Program-made: the position numbers and the translations under genes | Shown here: piece after piece, positions 1 to 11,633 of the stretch | How the letters are laid out: every line of letters begins with the position of its first letter | How positions within the stretch are numbered: position 1 is the stretch's first letter | From: a virus | Lineage: Duplodnaviria > Heunggongvirae > Uroviricota > Caudoviricetes | IMG/VR virus record: IMGVR_UViG_2548876940_000003 | Coordinates: 1 to 11,633 of that record | Length of the DNA: 11,633 nt | Strand: one strand, 5' to 3' | Notes under the pieces: model-generated | What the model saw: only the letters and a program-made list of their open reading frames with translations | The model's database searches: none | Told to the model about the DNA's origin: nothing

Positions 1-6
1 GTGAGC

Positions 7-34
7 GGGGGCGAAATGCCCCCGTGTCTTTTTT
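7..34 (+). terminator. GC-rich stem-loop followed by a T-run; putative rho-independent terminator or mRNA-stabilising hairpin upstream of FI
   Basis: Positions 7-12 GGGGGC and 18-23 GCCCCC form a perfect 6-bp inverted repeat around a 5-nt loop (gaaat), followed by gtgtcTTTTTTc. It sits just upstream of the FI ribosome-binding site (aggggg, ~38-43). Confidence 0.4.
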
Positions 35-48
35 CACAGGGGGCTGAT

Positions 49-423
49 ATGGCAACGAAAGAGCAAAATCTGAAACGGCTTGATGAACTGGCCCTGATTC
101 TGGGGCGTGAGCCGGATATATCCGGGAGTGCCGCAGAGATAGCGCAGCGGGTGGCGGAATGGGAAGAGGAAATACAGTCATCCGGCGAGGATGTTCAGGT
201 TATGAATATGGATATCCGGGAGCGGGAAACCGCGGCTCATGATGTTCGTGAGGATACATCCGGTGCGTTAACGCGCATCAGAGTTCTGACCTGCCTCCAT
301 CTCTGTGGCATTGATGGTGAAACAGGGGAATCCGTTGAGCTTGCGGATGTTGGTCGGGTGATTCTGATTATGTCCTCAGATGCAAAAACACACGTTGATG
401 GCGGAATGGCTGTTTATGCGTGA
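49..423 (+). CDS. FI: DNA-packaging protein FI-like (head assembly/packaging accessory)
   Basis: ORF track frame 1..423. The likely true start is the ATG at 49 (MATKEQNLKRLDEL...), preceded by a purine-rich RBS. It sits immediately upstream of FII as in lambda, and the N-terminal helix resembles lambda gpFI from memory; the C-terminal half is more divergent. Confidence 0.7.
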   Translation: MATKEQNLKRLDELALILGREPDISGSAAEIAQRVAEWEEEIQSSGEDVQVMNMDIRERETAAHDVREDTSGALTRIRVLTCLHLCGIDGETGESVELADVGRVILIMSSDAKTHVDGGMAVYA

Positions 424-769
424 TTTTCAGAATGCCTTTGATGCCGCCCTTGCCGGGGTGGACAGTACGATTGTTGAAGTGATGGGCATCAGTGCGCAGT
501 TCACCTCCGGTGCACAGCGTGGCGGCGAAGTTCAGGGGGTTTTTGACGATCCGGAGTCGCTGGGGTTTGCCAGTAGTGGGATCCGTATTGAAGGAAGCAG
601 CCCGTCATTATTTGTGCGGACGGATACGGTTCGTGCCGTGCGGCGTGGTGACACGCTGACCATTAATGGTGAGACGTTCTGGGTGGATCGTGTTTCTCCG
701 GATGACGGGGGCAGTTGTTATCTCTGGCTGAACCGTGGGCAACCACCCGCAGTTAACCGGCGACGATAA
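416..769 (+). CDS. FII: Head-tail connector / head completion protein gpFII
   Basis: Translation from the ATG at 416 (MRDFQNAFDAA...GVFDDPE...EGSSPSLFVRTD...RRGDTLTI...FWVDRVSPDDGGSC..LWL.RG.PPAVNRRR) is near-colinear with lambda gpFII (117 aa). The track ORF begins at 380, but 416 matches the conserved N-terminus and overlaps the FI stop (ATGCGTGA). Confidence 0.85.
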   Translation: MRDFQNAFDAALAGVDSTIVEVMGISAQFTSGAQRGGEVQGVFDDPESLGFASSGIRIEGSSPSLFVRTDTVRAVRRGDTLTINGETFWVDRVSPDDGGSCYLWLNRGQPPAVNRRR

Positions 770-783
770 ACGCAGGGTGAATT

Positions 784-1359
784 ATGGCGATAAAAGGGCT
801 TGATCAGGCGATTGAAAATCTGAGCCGGGTTCGTAAAAACGCCATTCCGTCGGCTTCAGCAATGGCTATTAACCGCGTGGCTACAACGGCGATTAATCAG
901 TCTTCATCACAGGTTGCCCGGGAGACCAGGGTGAGACGGAAACTGGTAAAGGAACGGTCCAGACTGAAACGGGCGACGATCAGAAATCCGAATGCCAGAA
1001 TTATCGTTAACCGCGGTGATCTCCCTGCTATTAAGCTGGGGATCAGGATGCTTGGTCATCGTCCGAACAGCATACTTAAAGCCGGTCAGCATCGTTATCA
1101 GCGGGCATTCATCCAGCGATTAAATAATGGGCGCTGGCATGTTATGCAACGTTTGCCAGAAGCCCGGTATGCGAAGGGCAATGACGATAAAGGAAGGAAA
1201 AAGCGTAATCGTCTTCCCATTCAGGTGGTTAAAATTCCGATGGCGGCCCCACTGAAGCAGGCTTTTGATGAGAACGTTAACCGTATCCGGCGAGAACGTC
1301 TGCCAAAAGAACTGGGCTATGCGTTGAAACAACAACTAAGGATTGTGATAAAGCGATGA
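784..1359 (+). CDS. Z: Tail completion protein gpZ
   Basis: 191-aa ORF; the N-terminus MAIKGL.QA.ENLSR and C-terminus IRRERLPKELGYAL..QLR.VIKR match lambda gpZ. Position after FII and ATGA overlap with U. Confidence 0.9.
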   Translation: MAIKGLDQAIENLSRVRKNAIPSASAMAINRVATTAINQSSSQVARETRVRRKLVKERSRLKRATIRNPNARIIVNRGDLPAIKLGIRMLGHRPNSILKAGQHRYQRAFIQRLNNGRWHVMQRLPEARYAKGNDDKGRKKRNRLPIQVVKIPMAAPLKQAFDENVNRIRRERLPKELGYALKQQLRIVIKR

Positions 1360-1751
1360 AACATACGGATATCCGTGCAGCCGTACTGGATGCACTGGAG
1401 AAACATGATACCGGGGCGACGCTTTTTGATGGTCGCCCCGCTGTTTTTGATGAGGCGGATTTTCCGGCAATTGCCGTTTATCTCACCGGCGCTGAATACT
1501 CGGGCGAAGAGCTGGACTGCGATACCTGGCAGGCGGAGCTGCATATTGAAGTTTTTCTGCCTGCTCAGGTGCCGGATTCAGAGCTGGACACGTGGATGGA
1601 GTCCCGGATTTACCCGGTGATGAGCGATATCCCGGCACTGTCAGATTTGATCGCCAGTATGGTGGCCAGCGGCTATGACTACCGGCGCGATGATGATGTG
1701 GGCCTGTGGAGTTCAGCCGATCTGACTTATGTCATTACCTATGAAATGTGA
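1356..1751 (+). CDS. U: Tail tube terminator protein gpU
   Basis: 131-aa ORF ([123 protein letters not shown]), essentially colinear with lambda gpU. Confidence 0.95.
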
Positions 1752-1758
1752 GGACGAT

Positions 1759-2499
1759 ATGCCTGTACCAAATCCAGCAATACCGGTGAAAGGTGCCGGA
1801 ACCACCCTGTGGGTTTATAACGGAAACGGCGACCCTTATGCGAACCCGCTTTCAGACGTTGACTGGTCGCGTCTGGCAAAAGTTAAAGACCTGACGCCCG
1901 GCGAACTGACCGCGGAGTCCTATGACGACAGCTATCTCGATGATGAAGATGCGGACTGGACCGCAACCGGTCAGGGGCAGAAATCCGCCGGAGATACCAG
2001 CTTCACGCTGGCGTGGATGCCCGGAGAGCAGGGGCAGCAGGCGCTGCTGGCGTGGTTTAATGAAGGTGATACCCGTGCCTATAAAATTCGCTTCCCGAAC
2101 GGCACGGTCGATGTGTTCCGTGGCTGGGTCAGCAGTATCGGTAAGGCGGTGACGGCGAAGGAAGTGATCACCCGCACGGTGAAGGTCACCAATGTGGGAC
2201 GCCCGTCGATGGCAGAAGATCGCAGTACGGTGACAGCGGCAACCGGTATGACCGTGACGCCTGCCAGTGCTTCCGTGGTGAAAGGGAAGAGCACCACGCT
2301 GACTGTGGCATTTCAGCCGGAAGGCGCAACCGACAAGAGCTTCCGTGCGGTGTCAGAGGATAAAACAAAAGCCACCGTGTCGGTCAGTGGTATGACCATC
2401 ACCGTGAACGGTGTTGCTGCAGGTAAGGTCAACATTCCGGTTGTATCCGGTAATGGTGAGTTTGCTGCGGTTGCAGAAATCAACGTCACCGACAGCTAA
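1759..2499 (+). CDS. V: Major tail tube protein gpV with C-terminal Ig-like (Big_2) domain
   Basis: The track ORF starts at 1729, but that overlaps U. The ATG at 1759 gives MPVPNP...[10 protein letters not shown]...[47 protein letters not shown]..., matching lambda gpV. The C-terminal ~90 aa are rich in T/V/S, as in the lambda Ig-like decoration domain. Confidence 0.93.
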
Positions 2500-2513
2500 T
2501 CGGAGAGTCAGCG

Positions 2514-2936
2514 ATGTTCCTGAAAACCGAATCATTTGAATATAACGGCGTGAGCGTCACGCTTTCTGAGCTGTCAGCCCTGCAGCGTATTGAGCATCTT
2601 GCCCTGCTGAAACGGCAGGCAGAACAGGCGGGAGCCGGCGACAACCTGCAGGTGAGCGTGGAGGATCTCGTCAGAACCGGCGCGTTTCTGGTGGCGATGT
2701 CCCTGTGGCATAACCATCCGCAGAAGACAAAGAGGCCGTCCATGGATGAAGCCGTTAAACAGATTGAGCAGGAAGTGCTTACCACCTGGCCCACAGAGGC
2801 AATTGCTCAGGCTGAAAATGTGGTAATGCGTCTGTCCGGTATGTCTGAGTTTGTTGTGAATAATGCTCCTGAGCAGACAGAAGACGCGGGGCCTGCAGAG
2901 CCTGTTTCTGCGGGAAAGTGTTCGACGGTGAGCTGA
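2514..2936 (+). CDS. G: Tail assembly chaperone gpG
   Basis: 140-aa ORF (MFLKTESFE.NGV.VTLSELSALQRIEHLAL.KRQAEQA...AFLVAMSLWHNHPQKT..PSM.EAVKQIEQEVLTTWPTEAI..AENVV.RLSGM.EFVVNNAPEQTEDAGPAEPVSAGKCSTVS) matches lambda gpG, including the slippery site near its 3' end. Confidence 0.93.
   Translation: MFLKTESFEYNGVSVTLSELSALQRIEHLALLKRQAEQAGAGDNLQVSVEDLVRTGAFLVAMSLWHNHPQKTKRPSMDEAVKQIEQEVLTTWPTEAIAQAENVVMRLSGMSEFVVNNAPEQTEDAGPAEPVSAGKCSTVS
2912..2918 (+). promoter_or_regulatory. Programmed -1 ribosomal frameshift slippery heptamer G GGA AAG (G to G-T fusion)
   Basis: GGGAAAG lies in the G reading frame as G_GGA_AAG, 6 codons before the G stop. The -1 frame continues open for 141 codons (ORF 2918..3343), as in the lambda G/GT system. 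Confidence 0.85.
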
Positions 2937-3343
2937 GTTTTGCCCTGAAACTGGCGCGTGAGATGGGGAGACCCGACTGGCGTGCCATGCTTGCCGGGAT
3001 GTCATCCACGGAGTATGCCGACTGGCACCGCTTTTACAGCACCCATTATTTTCATGATGTTCTGCTGGATATGCACTTTTCCGGGCTGACGTACACCGTG
3101 CTCAGCCTGTTTTTCAGCGATCCGGATATGCATCCGCTGGATTTCAGTCTGCTGAACCGGCGCGAGGCTGACGAAGAGCCTGAAGATGATGTGCTGATGC
3201 AGAAAGCGGCAGGGCTTGCCGGAGGTGTTCGTTTTGGTCCGGACGGGAATGAAGTTATCCCCGCTTCCCCGGACATGACGGAGGATGACGCAATGCTGAT
3301 GACAGTATCAGAAGGGATCGCAGGAGGAGTCCGGTATGGCTGA
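2918..3343 (+). CDS. T: T-frame portion of the tail assembly chaperone gpGT fusion, expressed by -1 frameshift from G
   Basis: The -1 frame ORF begins at the slippery site and ends at a TGA overlapping the H start (3336). Acidic C-terminus as in lambda gpT. No independent RBS is expected. Confidence 0.85.
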   Translation: MFDGELSFALKLAREMGRPDWRAMLAGMSSTEYADWHRFYSTHYFHDVLLDMHFSGLTYTVLSLFFSDPDMHPLDFSLLNRREADEEPEDDVLMQKAAGLAGGVRFGPDGNEVIPASPDMTEDDAMLMTVSEGIAGGVRYG

Positions 3344-3878
3344 ACCGGTAGGCGATCTGGTCGTTGATTTAAGTCTGGATGCAGCCAGATTTGACGAGCA
3401 GATGGCCAGAGTCAGGCGTCATTTTTCCGGTACGGAAAGTGATGCGAAAAAAACAGCGGCAGTTGTTGAGCAGTCGATGAGCCGACAGGCGCTGGCTGCA
3501 CAGAAAGCGGGTATCTCTGTAGGGCAGTATAAAGCTGCCATGCGTATGCTGCCTGCGCAGTTCACCGACGTGGCCACGCAGCTTGCAGGGGGGCAGAACC
3601 CGTTTCTCATCCTGCTGCAACAGGGCGGTCAGGTAAAAGATTCCTTCGGTGGGTTGATCCCCATGTTCGGGGGGCTTGCCGGTGCAGTCACCCTGCCGAT
3701 GGTGGGGCTCACTTCGCTGGCAGTTGCCACCGGAGCGCTGGCGTATGCCTGGTATCAGGGGGACTCAACCCTGTCCAGTTTCAATAAAACGCTGGTCCTT
3801 TCCGGTAATCAGGCAGGACTAACGGCAGATCGTATGCTGGTCCTGTCCTGTCCAGAGCAGGGCAGGCGGCAGGGCTGA
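3336..3878 (+). CDS. H: Tail tape measure protein gpH, N-terminal fragment (reading frame broken at ~3849-3853)
   Basis: Strong RBS (aggagga) and ATG at 3336. MAEPVGDLVVDLSLDAARFDEQMARVRRHFSGTESDAKK... matches the lambda gpH N-terminus. The frame ends after LVLS with an aberrant CPEQGRRQG* tail, while the H sequence continues in another frame. Confidence 0.85.
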   Translation: MAEPVGDLVVDLSLDAARFDEQMARVRRHFSGTESDAKKTAAVVEQSMSRQALAAQKAGISVGQYKAAMRMLPAQFTDVATQLAGGQNPFLILLQQGGQVKDSFGGLIPMFGGLAGAVTLPMVGLTSLAVATGALAYAWYQGDSTLSSFNKTLVLSGNQAGLTADRMLVLSCPEQGRRQG

Positions 3879-5920
3879 CGTTTAACCAGACCAGCGAGTC
3901 ACTGACGGCGCTGGTGAATGCCGGTGTGCGTGGTGGTGAGCAGTTTGAGGCGATCAGCCAGAGTGTGGCGCGTTTCTCCTCTGCATCGGGCGTGGAGGTG
4001 GACAAGGTCGCTGAAGCCTTCGGGAAGCTGACCACAGACCCGACGTCGGGACTGACAGCGATGGCACGTCAGTTCCATAACGTGACGGCGGAGCAGATTG
4101 CGTATGTTGCTCAGTTGCAGCGTTCCGGAGATGAAGCCGGGGCATTGCAGGCGGCGAACGAGGCCGCAACGAAAGGGTTTGATGACCAGACCCGCCGCCT
4201 GAAAGAGAACATGGGCACGCTGGAGACCTGGGCAGACAGGACAGCACAGGCATTCAAATCCATGTGGGATGCGGTGCTGGATATTGGCCGCCCGGACTCC
4301 TCTGCAGATATGCTCGCCAAAGCTGAAAAGGCTTTTGATGAAGCGGATAAAAAATGGCAGTGGTATCAGAGCCGAAGCCACCGGCGCGGTAAAACGTCAG
4401 CATTTCTTGCCAATCTCCGGGGGGCATGGGAGAAGAGAGAGAATGCGCGACTTGGGCTTTCAGCCGCCACGTTGCAGGCCGATCTTGAAAAGGCCAGTGA
4501 GATGGCAGCAAAAGATCGGGCTGAGTCTGAGGCATCACGGCTGAAATATACCGAAGAGGCGCAGAAGGCTTACGAACGCCTGCAGACGCCGCTGGAGAAA
4601 TATACCGCCCGTCAGGAAGAACTGAATAAGGCACTGAAAGACGGGAAAATTCTGCAGGCAGATTACAACACGCTGATGGCGGCGGCGAAAAAGGATTATG
4701 AAGCGACGCTGAAAAAGCCGAAGCAGTCCGGCGTGAAGGTGTCTGCGGGTGATCGTCAGGAAGACAGTGCTCATGCTGCCCTGTTGACGCTTCAGGCAGA
4801 ACTCCGGACGCTGGAGAAGCATGCCGGAGCGAATGAGAAAATCAGCCAGCAGCGCCGGGATTTGTGGAAGGCGGAGAATCAGTTCGCGGTACTGGAGGAG
4901 GCGGCGCAACGTCGCCAGCTGTCTGCACAGGAGAAATCCCTGCTGGCGCATAAAGACGAGACGCTGGAGTACAAGCGCCAGCTGGCTGCACTTGGCGACA
5001 AGGTTACGTATCAGGAGCACCTGAACGCGCTGGCGCAGCAGGCGGATAAATTCGCACAGCAGCAACGGGCAAAACGGGCCGCCATTGATGCGAAAAGCCG
5101 GGGGCTGACTGACCGGCAGGCAGAACGGGAAGGCACGGAACAGCGCCTGAAGGAACAGTATGGCGATAATCCGCTGGCGCTGAATAACGTCATGTCAGAG
5201 CAGAAAAAGACCTGGGCGGCTGAAGACCAGCTTCGCGGGAGCTGGATGGCAGGCCTGAAGTCCGGCTGGAGTGAGTGGGAAGAGAGCGCCACGGACAGTA
5301 TGTCGCAGGTAAAAAGTGCAGCCACGCAGACCTTTGATGGAATTGCACAGAATATGGCGGCGATGCTGACCGGCAGTGAGCAGAACTGGCGCAGCTTCAC
5401 CCGTTCCGTGCTGTCTATGATGACAGAAATTCTGCTTAAGCAGGCAATGGTGGGGATTGTCGGGAGTATCGGCAGCGCCATTGGCGGGGCTGCCGGTGGT
5501 GGCGCATCCGCGTCAGGCGGTAGAGCCATTCAGGCCGCTGCGGCGAAATTCCATTTTGCAACCGGAGGATTTACGGGAACCGGCGGCAAATATGAGCCAG
5601 CGGGGATTGTTCACCGTGGTGAGTTTGTCTTCACGAAGGAGGCAACCAGCCGGATTGGCGTGGGGAATCTTTACCGGCTGATGCGCGGCTATGCCACCGG
5701 CGGTTATGTCGGTACACCGGGCAGCATGGCAGACAGCCGATCGCAGGCGTCCGGGACGTTTGAGCAGAATAACCATGTGGTGATTAACAACGACGGCACG
5801 AACGGGCAGATTGGACCACAGGCGCTGAAGGCTGTGTATGACATGGCCCGCAAGGGTGCCCGTGATGAAATTCAGGCACAGATGCGCGATGGTGGTCTGT
5901 TCTCCGGAGGTGGACGATGA
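3842..5920 (+). CDS. H: Tail tape measure protein gpH, C-terminal ~690 codons in the shifted frame (likely pseudogene or sequencing error)
   Basis: The frame 3842.. reads PVLSRAGQAAGLTFNQTSESL...ISQSVARFSSASGVEVDKVAEAFGKLTTDPTSGL..., colinear with lambda gpH through to the C-terminal ...MRDGGLFSGGGR. The track ORF 3914..5920 starts at an internal GTG. The stop overlaps the M start (ATGA). Confidence 0.85.
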   Translation, partial: PVLSRAGQAAGLTFNQTSESLTALVNAGVRGGEQFEAISQSVARFSSASGVEVDKVAEAFGKLTTDPTSGLTAMARQFHNVTAEQIAYVAQLQRSGDEAGALQAANEAATKGFDDQTRRLKENMGTLETWADRTAQAFKSMWDAVLDIGRPDSSADMLAKAEKAFDEADKKWQWYQSRSHRRGKTSAFLANLRGAWEKRENARLGLSAATLQADLEKASEMAAKDRAESEASRLKYTEEAQKAYERLQTPLEKYTARQEELNKALKDGKILQADYNTLMAAAKKDYEATLKKPKQSGVKVSAGDRQEDSAHAALLTLQAELRTLEKHAGANEKISQQRRDLWKAENQFAVLEEAAQRRQLSAQEKSLLAHKDETLEYKRQLAALGDKVTYQEHLNALAQQADKFAQQQRAKRAAIDAKSRGLTDRQAEREGTEQRLKEQYGDNPLALNNVMSEQKKTWAAEDQLRGSWMAGLKSGWSEWEESATDSMSQVKSAATQTFDGIAQNMAAMLTGSEQNWRSFTRSVLSMMTEILLKQAMVGIVGSIGSAIGGAAGGGASASGGRAIQAAAAKFHFATGGFTGTGGKYEPAGIVHRGEFVFTKEATSRIGVGNLYRLMRGYATGGYVGTPGSMADSRSQASGTFEQNNHVVINNDGTNGQIGPQALKAVYDMARKGARDEIQAQMRDGGLFSGGGR

Positions 5921-6246
5921 AAACCTTCCGCTGGAAAGTGAAACCCGGGATGGATGTGACATCGGCTCCTTCCGTCAGGGAGGTGCGCTTTGGTGATGGC
6001 TATTCCCAGCGTGCGCCTGCCGGGCTGAACGCTGACCTGAAAACGTACAGCGTGACGCTGTCTGTCTCCCGTGAGGAGGCCACGGCGCTGGAGTCGTTTC
6101 TGGCTGAGCACGGGGGCTGGAAGGCCTTTCTGTGGACGCCGCCTTATGGTTACAGGCAGATAAAGGTGACCTGCGCAAAATGGTCGTCGCAGGTCAGTAT
6201 GCTGCGTGTTGAGTTCAGCGCAGAGTTTAAACAGGTGGTGAACTGA
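5917..6246 (+). CDS. M: Tail tip protein gpM
   Basis: 109-aa ORF (MKTFRWKVKPGMDV...VRFGDGYSQRAPAGLNA.LKTYSVTLSV.REEAT.LESFL.EHGGWK.FLWTPPY..RQIKVTCAKWSS.VSMLRVEFSAEF.QVVN), colinear with lambda gpM. Confidence 0.95.
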   Translation: MKTFRWKVKPGMDVTSAPSVREVRFGDGYSQRAPAGLNADLKTYSVTLSVSREEATALESFLAEHGGWKAFLWTPPYGYRQIKVTCAKWSSQVSMLRVEFSAEFKQVVN

Positions 6247-6944
6247 TGCAGGATATCCGGCAGGAAACACTGAATGAATGCACCCGTGCGGAGCAGTCGG
6301 CCAGCGTGGTGCTCTGGGAAATCGATCTGACAGAGGTCGGTGGAGAACGTTATTTTTTCTGTAATGAGCAGAACGAAAAAGGTGAGCCGGTCACCTGGCA
6401 GGGGAGGCAGTATCAGGCGTATCCCATTCAGGGGAGCGGTTTTGAACTGAATGGCAAAGGCACCAGTACGCGGCCCACGCTGGCAGTCTCTAACCTGTAC
6501 GGCATGGTCACCGGTATGGTGGAAGATATGCAGAGTCTGGTCGGCGGAACGGTGGTCAGGCGTAAGGTTTACGCCCGTTTTCTGGATGCGGTGAACTTCG
6601 TCAACGGAAACAGTGACGCCGATCCGGAGCAGGAGGTGATCAGCCGCTGGCGCATCGAGCAGTGCAGTGAACTGAGCGCGGTGAGTGCCTCCTTTGTACT
6701 GGCCACGCCGACGGAAACGGATGGCGCTGTTTTTCCGGGGCGTATCATGCTGGCCAACACCTGCACCTGGACCTATCGCGGTGATGAGTGCGGTTATAAC
6801 GGTCCGGCTGTCGCGGATGAATATGACCAGCCGACGTCCGATATCACGAAGGATAAATGCAGCAAATGCCTGAGTGGCTGTAAGTTTCGCAATAACGTCG
6901 GCAACTTTGGCGGCTTCCTTTCCATTAACAAACTTTCGCAGTAA
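6246..6944 (+). CDS. L: Tail tip protein gpL (C-terminal cysteine cluster, iron-sulfur binding in lambda)
   Basis: 232-aa ORF (MQDIRQETLNECTRAEQSASVVLWEIDLTEVGGERYFFCNEQNEKGEPVTWQGRQYQ.YPIQGSGFELNGKGTSTRPTL.VSNLYGMVTGM.EDMQSLVGGTVVRRKVYARFLDAVNFVNGNS.ADPEQEV...CTWTYRGDECGY.GP...DKCSKCLSGCKFRNNVGNFGGFLSINKLSQ) matches lambda gpL. Confidence 0.95.
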   Translation: MQDIRQETLNECTRAEQSASVVLWEIDLTEVGGERYFFCNEQNEKGEPVTWQGRQYQAYPIQGSGFELNGKGTSTRPTLAVSNLYGMVTGMVEDMQSLVGGTVVRRKVYARFLDAVNFVNGNSDADPEQEVISRWRIEQCSELSAVSASFVLATPTETDGAVFPGRIMLANTCTWTYRGDECGYNGPAVADEYDQPTSDITKDKCSKCLSGCKFRNNVGNFGGFLSINKLSQ

Positions 6945-6949
6945 ATCCC

Positions 6950-7693
6950 ATGACACAGACAGAATCAGCGATTCTGGCGCACGCCCGGCGATGTGCGCCA
7001 GCGGAGTCGTGCGGCTTCGTGGTAAGCACGCCGGAGGGGGAAAGATATTTCCCCTGCGTGAATATCTCCGGTGAGCCGGAGGCGTATTTCCGTATGTCGC
7101 CGGAAGACTGGCTGCAGGCAGAAATGCAGGGTGAGATTGTGGCGCTGGTCCACAGCCACCCCGGTGGTCTACCCTGGCTGAGTGAGGCCGACCGGCGGCT
7201 GCAGGTGCAGAGTGATTTGCCGTGGTGGCTGGTCTGCCGGGGGACGATTCATAAGTTCCGCTGTGTGCCGCATCTCACCGGGCGGCGCTTTGAGCACGGT
7301 GTGACGGACTGTTACACACTGTTCCGGGATGCTTATCATCTGGCGGGGATTGAGATGCCGGACTTTCATCGTGAGGATGACTGGTGGCGTAACGGCCAGA
7401 ATCTCTATCTGGATAATCTGGAGGCGACGGGGCTGTATCAGGTGCCGTTGTCAGCGGCACAGCCGGGCGATGTGCTGCTGTGCTGTTTTGGTTCATCGGT
7501 GCCGAATCACGCCGCAATTTACTGCGGCGACGGCGAGCTGCTGCACCATATTCCTGAACAACTGAGCAAACGAGAGAGGTACACCGACAAATGGCAGCGA
7601 CGCACACACTCCCTCTGGCGTCACCGGGCATGGCGCGCATCTGCCTTTACGGGGATTTACAACGATTTGGTCGCCGCATCGACCTTCGTGTGA
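6950..7693 (+). CDS. K: Tail tip assembly protein gpK (MPN/JAMM domain plus NlpC/P60-like domain)
   Basis: 247-aa ORF. It contains a complete JAMM motif (E in AESCGF, then HSHPGGLPWLSEAD = HxHx7Sx2D) and a C-terminal Cys/His region (TDCYTLF...NHAAIY..LLHH). The lambda annotation I recall uses the internal Met at 7094 (MSPEDW..., 199 aa); the 6950 start includes the whole MPN domain. The 3' end overlaps I by 103 nt. Confidence 0.85.
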   Translation: MTQTESAILAHARRCAPAESCGFVVSTPEGERYFPCVNISGEPEAYFRMSPEDWLQAEMQGEIVALVHSHPGGLPWLSEADRRLQVQSDLPWWLVCRGTIHKFRCVPHLTGRRFEHGVTDCYTLFRDAYHLAGIEMPDFHREDDWWRNGQNLYLDNLEATGLYQVPLSAAQPGDVLLCCFGSSVPNHAAIYCGDGELLHHIPEQLSKRERYTDKWQRRTHSLWRHRAWRASAFTGIYNDLVAASTFV

Positions 7694-8262
7694 AAACGGG
7701 GGCTGAAGCCATCCGGGCACTGGCCACACAGCTCCCGGCGTTTCGTCAGAAACTGAGCGACGGCTGGTATCAGGTACGGATTGCCGGGCGGGACGTCAGC
7801 ACGTCCGGGTTAACGGCTCAGTTACATGAGACTCTGCCTGATGGCGCTGTGATTCATATTGTTCCCAGAGTCGCCGGGGCCAAGTCAGGTGGCGTATTCC
7901 AGATTGTCCTGGGGGCTGCCGCCATTGCCGGATCATTCTTTACCGCCGGAGCCACCCTTGCAGCATGGGGGGCAGCCATTGGGGCCGGTGGTATGACCGG
8001 CATCCTGTTTTCTCTCGGTGCCAGTATGGTGCTCGGTGGTGTGGCGCAGATGCTGGCACCGAAAGCCAGAACTCCCCGTACACAGACAACGGATAACGGT
8101 AAGCAGAACACCTATTTCTCCTCACTGGATAACATGGTTGCCCAGGGCAATGTTCTGCCCGTTCTGTACGGTGAAATGCGCGTGGGGTCTCGCGTGGTTT
8201 CTCAGGAGATCAGCACGGCAGACGAAGGGGACGGTGGTCAGGTTGTGGTGATTGGTCGCTGA
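7591..8262 (+). CDS. I: Tail tip assembly protein gpI
   Basis: 223-aa ORF (MAATHTLPLASPGMARICLYGDLQRFGRRIDLRVKTGAEAIRALATQLPAFRQKLSDGWYQVRIAGRDVS...GEMRVGSRVVSQEISTADEGDGGQVVVIGR), colinear with lambda gpI. It starts inside the 3' end of K in another frame, as in lambda. Confidence 0.93.
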   Translation: MAATHTLPLASPGMARICLYGDLQRFGRRIDLRVKTGAEAIRALATQLPAFRQKLSDGWYQVRIAGRDVSTSGLTAQLHETLPDGAVIHIVPRVAGAKSGGVFQIVLGAAAIAGSFFTAGATLAAWGAAIGAGGMTGILFSLGASMVLGGVAQMLAPKARTPRTQTTDNGKQNTYFSSLDNMVAQGNVLPVLYGEMRVGSRVVSQEISTADEGDGGQVVVIGR

Positions 8263-8280
8263 TGCAAAATGTTTTATGTG

Positions 8281-8301
8281 AAACCGCCTGCGGGCGGTTT
8301 T
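8281..8301 (+). terminator. Intergenic I-J stem-loop with trailing T-run (putative attenuator or RNA-stability hairpin)
   Basis: AAACCGCC-tgcg-GGCGGTTT is a perfect 8-bp inverted repeat with a 4-nt loop, followed by TTTTgtcgTTTaT, in the 60-nt gap between the I stop (8262) and the J RBS/ATG (8323). Confidence 0.4.
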
Positions 8302-8322
8302 GTCGTTTATGGAGCGTGAGGA

Positions 8323-10263
8323 ATGGGTAAAGGCAGCAGTAAGGGGCATACCCCGCGCGAAGCGAAAGATAACCTGAAATCCACGCAGCTGCTGAGTGTG
8401 ATTGATGCCATCAGCGAAGGGCCGATTGAAGGTCCGGTGGATGGATTAAAAAGCGTGCTGCTGAACAGTACGCCGGTGCTGGACAGTGAGGGGAATACCA
8501 ACATCTCCGGCGTCACGGTGGTGTTCCGGGCAGGTGAGCAGGAGCAGACACCGCCGGAAGGTTTTGAATCCTCCGGCTCCGAGACGGTGCTGGGTACGGA
8601 AGTGAAATATGACACGCCGATCACCCGCACCATCACGTCGGCAAACATCGACCGCCTGCGCTTTACCTTCGGTGTGCAGGCACTGGTGGAAACCACCTCA
8701 AAGGGGGACCGGAATCCGTCGGAAGTCCGCCTGCTGGTTCAGATACAGCGTAACGGTGGCTGGGTGACGGAAAAAGACATCACCATTAAGGGCAAAACCA
8801 CCTCGCAGTATCTGGCCTCGGTGGTGGTGGATAACCTGCCGCCGCGCCCGTTTAATATCCGGATGCGCAGGATGATGCCGGACAGCACCACAGACCAGCT
8901 GCAGAACAAAACGCTCTGGTCGTCATACACCGAAATCATCGATGTGAAACAGTGCTACCCGAACACGGCACTGGTCGGCGTACAGGTGGACTCGGAGCAG
9001 TTCGGCAGCCAGCAGGTGAGTCGTAATTATCATCTTCGCGGGCGCATTCTGCAGGTGCCGTCGAACTATAACCCGCAGACGCGACAATACAGCGGTATCT
9101 GGGACGGAACGTTAAAACCAGCATACAGCAACAACATGGCCTGGTGTCTGTGGGATATGCTGACCCACCCGCGCTACGGCATGGGGAAACGTCTTGGTGC
9201 GGCGGATGTGGACAAATGGGCGCTGTATGTCATCGGCCAGTACTGCGACCAGTCAGTGCCGGACGGCTTTGGCGGCACGGAGCTGCGCATCACCTGTAAT
9301 GCGTACCTGACCACACAGCGCAAGGCGTGGGATGTGCTCAGTGATTTCTGCTCGGCGATGCGCTGTATGCCGGTATGGAACGGGCAGACGCTGACGTTCG
9401 TGCAGGACCGACCGTCGGATAAGGTGTGGACCTATAACCGCAGTAATGTGGTGATGCCGGATGATGGCGCGCCGTTCCGCTACAGCTTCAGCGCCCTGAA
9501 GGACCGCCATAATGCCGTTGAGGTGAACTGGATTGACCCGAACAACGGCTGGGAGACGGCGACAGAGCTTGTGGAGGATACGCAGGCCATTGCCCGTTAC
9601 GGTCGTAACGTCACGAAGATGGATGCTTTTGGCTGTACCAGCCGGGGGCAGGCACACCGCGCCGGGCTGTGGCTGATTAAAACAGAACTGCTGGAAACGC
9701 AGACCGTGGACTTCAGCGTGGGCGCAGAAGGGCTTCGCCATGTGCCGGGCGATGTCATTGAAATCTGCGATGATGACTATGCCGGTATCAGCACCGGCGG
9801 GCGCGTGCTGGCGGTGAACAGCCAGACCCGGACGCTGACGCTCGACCGTGAAATCACGCTGCCATCCTCCGGTACCACGCTGATAAGCCTGGTTGACGGA
9901 AGTGGCAATCCGGTCAGCGTGGAGGTTCAGTCCGTCACCGACGGCGTGAAGGTGAAAGTGAGCCGTGTTCCTGACGGCGTTGCTGAATACAGCGTATGGG
10001 GGCTGAAGCTGCCGACGCTGCGCCAGCGCCTGTTCCGCTGCGTGAGTATCCGTGAGAACGATGACGGCACGTATGCCATCACTGCCGTGCAGCATGTACC
10101 GGAAAAAGAAGCCATCGTGGATAACGGGGCGCACTTTGACGGCGACCAGAGCGGCACGGTGAATGGTGTCACGCCGCCAGCGGTACAGCACCTGACTGCC
10201 GAAGTCACCGCAGACAGCGGGGAATATCAGGTGCTGGCGCGCTGGGACACCCGAAGGTGGTGA
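8323..10263 (+). CDS. J: Tail tip / central fibre host-specificity protein gpJ, N-terminal ~640 codons (frame broken at ~10250)
   Basis: RBS tgagga and ATG at 8323. [54 protein letters not shown]... is colinear with lambda gpJ. The ORF ends prematurely with ...ARWDTRRW* where lambda reads ...[14 protein letters not shown].... Confidence 0.9.
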
Positions 10264-11633
10264 AGGGCGTTAGCTTCCTTCTTCGCCTGACCGTGGCAGC
10301 GGATGACGGCAGTGAGCGGCTGGTCAGCACGGCCCGGACGACGGAAACCACATACCGCTTCAGGCAACTGGCGCTGGGGCGTTACACGCTGACAGTCCGG
10401 GCGGTAAATGCGTGGGGACAGCAGGGCGATCCGGCGTCGGTATCGTTCCGGATTGCCGCACCGGCAGCGCCGTCGCGGATTGAGCTGACGCCGGGCTATT
10501 TTCAGATAACCGCCACGCCGCATCTTGCGGTTTATGATCCGACGGTACAGTTTGAATTCTGGTTCTCGGAAAAGCGGATTGCGGATATCAGGCAGGTTGA
10601 AACCACAGCCCGCTATCTTGGCACGGCGCTGTACTGGATAGCTGCCAGTATCAATATTAAGCCGGGCCATGATTATTATTTTTACATCTGCAGTGTGAAC
10701 ACCGTTGGCAAATCGGCATTTGTGGAGGCCGTCGGCCAGCCGAGTGATGATGCATCCGGCTATCTGGATTTTTTCAAAGGCGAGATAGGGAAAACCCATC
10801 TGGCTCAGGAGTTGTGGACGCAGATTGATAACGGTCAGCTTGCGCCTGACCTGGCTGAAATCAGGACGTCCATTACGGATGTCAGCAATGAAATCACGCA
10901 GACCGTCAATAAGAAACTGGAAGACCAGAGTGCGGCAATTCAGCAGATACAGAAGGTTCAGGTTGATACAAATAATAACCTGAACAGCATGTGGGCTGTG
11001 AAGCTGCAGCAGATGCAGGACGGACGCCTTTATATCGCGGGTATTGGTGCCGGTATTGAGAACACCTCTGACGGCATGCAGAGTCAGGTGCTGCTGGCGG
11101 CGGACAGGATTGCGATGGTTAATCCTGCGAATGGCAACACAAAACCGATGTTTGTTGGTCAGGGCGATCAGATATTCATGAACGACGTGTTCCTGAAACG
11201 CCTGACGGCCCCCACCATTACCAGCGGTGGAAATCCACCGGCATTTTCCCTGACACCGGACGGAAAGCTGACCGCTAAAAATGCGGATATCAGTGGCAGT
11301 GTGAATGCGAACGCCGGGACGCTCAACAATGTCACGATTAACGAGAACTGTCGGGTTCTGGGAAAACTGTCCGCGAACCAGATTGAAGGCGATCTCGTTA
11401 AAACAGTGGGCAAAGCTTTCCCCCGGGACTCCCGTGCACCGGAACGGTGGCCATCAGGGACCATTACCGTCAGGGTTTATGACGATCAGCCGTTTGACCG
11501 GCAGATTGTTATTCCGGCGGTGGCATTCAGCGGCGCTAAACATGAGAGAGAGCATACTGATATTTACTCCTCATGCCGTCTGATAGTGCGGAAAAACGGT
11601 GCTGAAATTTATAACCGTACCGCGCTGGATAAT
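10254..11633 (+). CDS. J: gpJ C-terminal continuation in the shifted frame (partial; open to the end of the window)
   Basis: By my manual translation, the frame starting at 10254 has no stop through 11633 and reads [104 protein letters not shown]...[47 protein letters not shown]..., matching the distal half of lambda gpJ. It is not in the ORF track, presumably because it lacks a start codon and a stop within the window. Confidence 0.85.

Follow-up and report, generated by a model that had tools for sequence, protein, structure and literature searches.

The window analysed here is 11,633 bases long, contains no Ns and covers the whole of contig AIAU01000221.1, which belongs to a draft E. coli assembly (GCA_000446445.2). 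The assembly is a bacterial draft, and the contig carries phage genes only, from FI to J; no tRNA gene was found in the 11,633 bases. The plus strand, to which all coordinates below refer, encodes a lambda-type head-tail joining and tail module in the order FI (49-423), FII, Z, U, V, G (2514-2936), T (2918-3343), H, M, L, K, I and J. Near the end of G, at the G-T junction, lies the slippery heptamer GGGAAAG (2912-2918), the counterpart of the lambda heptamer that is the site of the programmed −1 frameshift between G and T; it is an example of a real recoding site within the same module.

The gene J, encoding the tip attachment or central tail fibre protein, was identified by its place after H, M, L, K and I, as given by gene order together with the Pfam families, which is the synteny of lambda gpJ. 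The window J shares with lambda J (NP_040600.1; PDB 8iyk) both this position and the order of the domains. Only its first 1104 codons are present, since the contig stops some 55 codons short of the complete gene. The lambda gene is a single open reading frame of 1132 amino acids and the intact relatives encode proteins of 1132-1165 aa, whereas the window J does not form the uninterrupted frame of about 1130-1165 codons expected of such a gene. Its 5′ part (8323-10263) comprises 646 codons and ends with the residues LARWDTRRW. As the original prediction had it, the frame reads tgg gac acc cga agg tgg tga at 10243-10263, that is W D T R R W followed by a stop; the premature TGA at 10261-10263 takes the place of codon 647, and the last three residues, RRW, are out of frame. 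The remainder of the gene (10251-11633; 461 codons) is shifted by −1, or equivalently by +2, with respect to the upstream part and stays open up to the end of the contig, again in agreement with the earlier reading of the sequence. The third reading frame is closed and full of stops.

The 646-residue product corresponds to residues 1-644 of lambda J (E=0, phmmer against PDB 8iyk and 9e7m). In Pfam, the upstream product matches FNIII-A_GpJ, Phage-tail_3 and positions 1-36 of Ig_J, while the downstream frame matches positions 35-104 of Ig_J, followed by Ig_J_second, Phage_Tail_Tip and Ig_GpJ_C. The domain series of gpJ is thus complete but divided between two frames, with Ig_J split at profile position 35/36, approximately, of 104. 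Insertion of one base restores 1104 codons devoid of stops, which are 86% identical to lambda J over 1101 residues, in agreement with the proposed loss of 1 bp. Since both halves of J are present and a one-base repair restores the frame, the interruption truly exists in the sequence; the frame is shifted by one base within a single Ig-like domain, and not between domains.

We then determined which base is missing. The original prediction had supposed that lambda reads acc ccg aag at this point and that a run of four Cs had shrunk to three. Comparison with the lambda J nucleotides at the WDTPKVV codons, which had been proposed as a check, gives another picture: lambda reads GAC ACA CCG AAG, with ACA CCG at Thr-Pro 643-644 and no four-C run, while phage 434 and the closest prophages read GAC ACG CCG AAG. 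Among the 21 relatives retrieved, the Thr-Pro codons are ACG CCG in 18 and ACA CCG in three, lambda being one of the latter, and ACC CCG occurs in none (0/21). The third base of Thr643 is thus polymorphic, G or A, among the J alleles. The missing base sits between 10250 and 10251, at the third (wobble) position of Thr codon 643, and the window gene, which lacks it, stops at codon 647. Because all relatives carry ACG or ACA, the base that was lost is a G, as in the closest relatives (it is an A in lambda), and the CCC run at 10250-10252 is the product of the deletion. Judged from these codons, the J lesion is the loss of a single G flanked by Cs (ACG CCG to AC- CCG), and the C3 run is its consequence rather than its substrate.

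This result was strengthened by searches with synthetic 71- and 72-mers, which carried the flanks of the window in three versions and were compared by BLAST with 5,426 complete E. coli genomes. At this site the three-C form of the window reads GACACCCGAAGG and the G form reads GACACGCCGAAGG. The G version of the 72-mer is found exactly in 89 records of the 5,426 genomes, whereas neither the 71-mer of the window nor the 72-mer with four Cs has an exact match among them. These data bear directly on a homopolymer contraction, in which either replication slippage or a flow or pore sequencing platform would have cut a CCCC run, real or apparent, down to CCC. The C3 run is indeed there at 10250-10252. 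However, four Cs are seen in none of the 21 relatives, lambda included, and a contraction would require a private G-to-C substitution followed by the loss of one C. We consider this explanation very improbable; the codons of the relatives and the 72-mer searches effectively refute it. As the lost base does not belong to a homopolymer, the main ground for suspecting a read error of the homopolymer type is removed.

The J allele of the window is carried by a prophage of strain DEC9B (gpJ WP_000515460.1, NZ_CP074760.1) and also occurs in O26/O111 strains; the DEC9B gene is intact and encodes 1159 aa. Over the 3311 nt of J in the window, it differs by two substitutions, one silent and one causing T185M, and by the lost G. 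After repair, the window J protein is identical to DEC9B gpJ at 1103 of 1104 positions, and the stretch downstream of the break is identical in protein. The repaired full-length J, completed with the C-terminus of DEC9B, was not found in the protein collection.

J is not the only gene of the module with a broken frame; a second frame-breaking lesion, which was not part of the original finding on J, lies in the tape-measure gene H. The 5′ fragment of H (3336-3878) has 180 codons and is ended by a frameshift. The shift results from a 5-bp tandem duplication: positions 3840-3853 read GTCCT GTCCT GTCC, as against GTCCT GTCC in seven intact relatives; the span measures 496 nt in these relatives versus 501 nt in the window. 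The remainder of H continues in the shifted frame (3854-5920), in which the gene caller placed an ORF of 668 aa at 3914-5920. The identical 5-bp duplication, together with the exact 180-aa truncated product, is encoded in four other independent datasets. Because the duplication recurs in these four datasets, the H lesion is genuine, and it is inherited in a small and very young lineage of strains whose members diverge by at most 2 SNPs in 6.4 kb. The C-terminal H fragment is found on AIAU01000221.1 alone, owing to 1-2 SNPs, and a 33-mer covering the duplication was not found in viral and metagenome contigs.

The accuracy of the contig was evaluated against independent sequences of the same lineage. 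The metagenome scaffold L002 (ERZ28640788) aligns with positions 2-6399 of the window (6398 nt) with two substitutions and no indel, and the overlaps with three Logan contigs from other runs, 1.7-1.9 kb long, are 99.95-100% identical. K and I encode proteins that match widespread ones exactly (21,118 and 23,755 blocks of the collection, respectively) and are too common for the lineage to be followed through them. Relatives' own lesions aside, the missing G is the sole indel between the window and its nearest relatives. A platform troubled by homopolymers would have miscounted the long runs first. The window has 47 homopolymers of at least 5 nt, 29 in the stretch compared with L002 and 18 in the rest, and none is discrepant with respect to L002 or to the DEC9B J. 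None of the 47 long runs is miscounted, and the contig bears no sign of indel-prone sequencing.

As to the J deletion itself, a 27-mer across it was found nowhere but in the source contig in searches of viral, metagenome and species-representative genome collections, and the exact 646-aa truncated product was found only on AIAU01000221.1 in the contig and protein collections. The deletion was not found in the independent datasets, in which the sister contigs sharing the H duplication stop before J. The Logan assemblies of the lineage end at window position 4614 and the metagenome scaffold at 6399; these breaks indicate that other prophages of such genomes probably contain further copies of the sequence past the two points, while the part upstream of 4614 is specific to the lineage. 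Furthermore, the segment 6400-11633 is present in a median of 3 and in up to 15 copies per E. coli genome. The J segment of the contig could consequently be a multi-copy consensus, or could come from another prophage than the broken H.

The original prediction had rightly framed the question as one of artefactual sequence versus genuine decay of the prophage, and the above observations weigh on both sides of it. If the deletion were an artefact of assembly or sequencing, the J gene of the strain would be intact (ACG CCG), and the G would have been dropped in the consensus of near-identical prophage J copies piled together. Several data are in keeping with such an event. In all the collections searched, the deletion occurs on one draft contig and nowhere else; it lies in a region of high copy number that other assemblers failed to cross, at a position that is G or A depending on the J allele. 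The rest of J reproduces an intact allele almost perfectly, and a break in a gene free of other damage is a pattern equally expected from a sequencing error. Against this, the missing base is not a homopolymer miscount, and no other indel discrepancy was detected in 11.6 kb, the 47 long runs included. In addition, a collapsed consensus of mixed copies should leave more than one scar, but J shows two clean substitutions only. We hold the artefact to be a serious possibility, though not the reading that we favour.

The indel rate is usually about tenfold below the SNP rate. With approximately 1-2 SNPs per 6.4 kb in the lineage, the expectation for a real indel private to the strain would be a few per cent over the remaining 5 kb. 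For a draft that has no other indel error, the probability that 5 kb of its consensus contains a false indel outside a homopolymer would be similar or somewhat lower.

In UTME-2, the J allele is the same as in the window and has an 11-bp deletion, equivalent to window positions 10769-10779, and the gene is annotated 'frameshifted'. In the O111:H11 strain 8D and related genomes, again with this allele, J is disrupted by an insertion of ISEc22. As in the window, the allele has been inactivated here as part of a resident prophage; these are, however, closed genomes, compared with one draft contig in our case. Since the type and the position of the lesions differ, those of UTME-2, 8D and the window are independent events.

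Taken with the verified H lesion, this repeated and independent inactivation of the allele tilts the balance toward a real mutation, and the presence of the H lesion in independent datasets makes decay the likelier reading. We infer that the J deletion is present in the DNA of the strain and not only in the assembly. Probably, though we say so with no great assurance, it is a recent and private pseudogenising deletion in a prophage that was already tail-defective, and hence a case of ordinary decay. According to this scenario, the H duplication would have come first and would have been inherited, while the J deletion would have followed later as an event private to the strain, under relaxed selection. 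The H and J segments would then belong to one prophage copy, a point that depends on a correct assembly of the contig. If the assembly is correct, the split of H implies that the tail could no longer be built before J was hit, and that purifying selection on J was already relaxed.

The proposed consequences for the protein follow from the position of the break. Deletion of the single G at the wobble base of Thr643 would inactivate the J gene of this lambda-type tail module. Translation past the deletion would read three wrong codons (R R W) and would then meet the TGA. The predicted product of 646 residues keeps the hub part of the protein and breaks off within the first Ig-like domain, two thirds of which are missing. 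Also absent are the second Ig domain and the domains of the tail-tip fibre and of C-terminal receptor binding, so that this product could not form a receptor-binding tail tip. We regard the J gene of the window as a pseudogene.

We also considered whether the split J might be tolerated or even functional, either through a −1 ribosomal frameshift that restores the full-length protein or through separate synthesis of two parts that assemble. The local arrangement lends itself to this idea, because the downstream frame has a GTG at 10260 that overlaps with the early stop TGA at 10261-10263 (GTGA), and the gene caller begins the downstream gene at this very codon. Re-initiation at the GTG is conceivable, but a divided beta-sandwich would then need to be rebuilt from the two pieces, as the break lies inside one Ig-like domain. 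The overlap of the two frames (10140-10263) contains no slippery heptamer of the type X XXY YYZ, and the two-frame layout is seen in no relative, all of which have J in a single frame. Programmed frameshifting in J was rejected on these two grounds, the missing heptamer and the lack of conservation. Moreover, H is broken too, and no tail would be made from the module alone. A functional split J is accordingly an explanation to which we give hardly any credence. The same holds for its more elaborate form, a natural two-piece J in which the 646-residue hub, a re-initiated C-terminal fragment and the tail proteins of co-resident prophages would make up a working tail tip; such an assembly appears exceedingly improbable.

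Decay of the gene, the reading that we prefer, has precedents. In the lambdoid prophages of enterohaemorrhagic E. coli (O157 Sakai), frame-shift mutations, deletions and IS insertions are reported to be common (Asadulghani et al. 2009, PMC2669165). The defective Sp prophages of O157 Sakai have lesions in morphogenesis genes, and the 11.6-kb window has two such lesions, in H and in J. A broken J in a decaying lambdoid prophage is thus a known kind of event and is biologically ordinary.

These results have practical consequences for the use of the sequence. The right annotation of J, and likewise of H, is one frameshifted pseudogene and not two genes, and the prophage should be scored as tail-defective. 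A 'fixing' of the site as a homopolymer, by polishing tools or by curators, would be unjustified, since what was lost is a G, and the C-run has not been shortened by a C. For studies of host range that draw J from this draft assembly, the allele is to be read as an intact gpJ of the O26/O111 type minus one base. Upstream of J, the tail genes of the DEC9B prophage differ from those of the window, where H and the genes that precede about 4.5 kb reach an identity of only about 86-94% with their best counterparts in the complete E. coli genomes.

The J allele of the window is also found inactivated at other positions in related prophages. In UTME-2 (NZ_CP169026.1), where J is annotated as frameshifted, the gene lacks the 11 bases TTTTTTCAAAG, which are present in the window at positions 10769-10779. 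This lesion inactivated the same J allele independently. The O111:H11 strain 8D (NZ_CP077469.1, locus 5685-8125) also carries the J allele of the window, in which ISEc22, an element of the IS66 family with tnpA, tnpB and the transposase, is inserted close to the 3′ end. According to the hit tables, the ISEc22 insertion in J appears to be common to EH031, 07_3986, 88_1577, 95_0274 and 6883.

After restoration of the reading frame, the J protein differs from the intact gpJ of DEC9B by a single amino acid, T185M, resulting from an ACG to ATG change at window position 8876 (codon 185). A full-length J carrying T185M and completed by the DEC9B C-terminus was absent from a collection of 15 billion proteins. 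Many J proteins labeled as partial in public drafts terminate within a few codons of the break site of the window (cluster members P0003 and P0004): a form of 660 amino acids, found on 288 contigs, ends in RLTVTA, and another of 641 amino acids ends in LARW. These partial proteins look like truncations at contig ends rather than frameshifts, and their termini look like a recurrent assembly break point near a boundary between conserved and variable parts of J.

Three long antisense ORFs are situated inside J and the tail gene L, at positions 9253-10191 (312 aa), 6150-6956 (268 aa) and 10227-10799 (190 aa), all on the minus strand. Gene calling of the window predicted no gene at any of these three locations, and they are most likely chance ORFs opposite GC-rich coding sequence.

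The tape-measure gene H (positions 3336-5920) falls into two reading frames as the result of a tandem duplication of 5 bp at 3840-3853, where the window reads GTCCT GTCCT GTCC and intact relatives read GTCCT GTCC. Because the identical lesion is also carried by the metagenome scaffold ERZ28640788 and by three Logan runs (SRR18173770, ERR180862 and SRR12495199), the split of H is a genuine defect, inherited within the prophage lineage of the window.

The window contains a mosaic boundary separating positions 1-4300 from 4529-11633. The left part, covering FI through the 5′ portion of H, shares only around 86% identity with the best complete-genome prophage, its H segment reaching 94% at best, whereas from around 4529 to the right the sequence matches O26/O111-type prophages at 98.5-99% identity. 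In independent assemblies of this lineage, breaks occur at window positions 4614 and 6399, and ERZ28640788 starts at position 2. These three positions and the contig ends look like repeat boundaries; the contig might therefore be made of segments joined from different prophage copies.

Upstream of H, a GGGAAAG heptamer is located at positions 2912-2918, 18 nucleotides before the stop codon of G, where the T frame starts. Lambda-like tail chaperones use this arrangement for their conserved programmed -1 frameshift between G and T.
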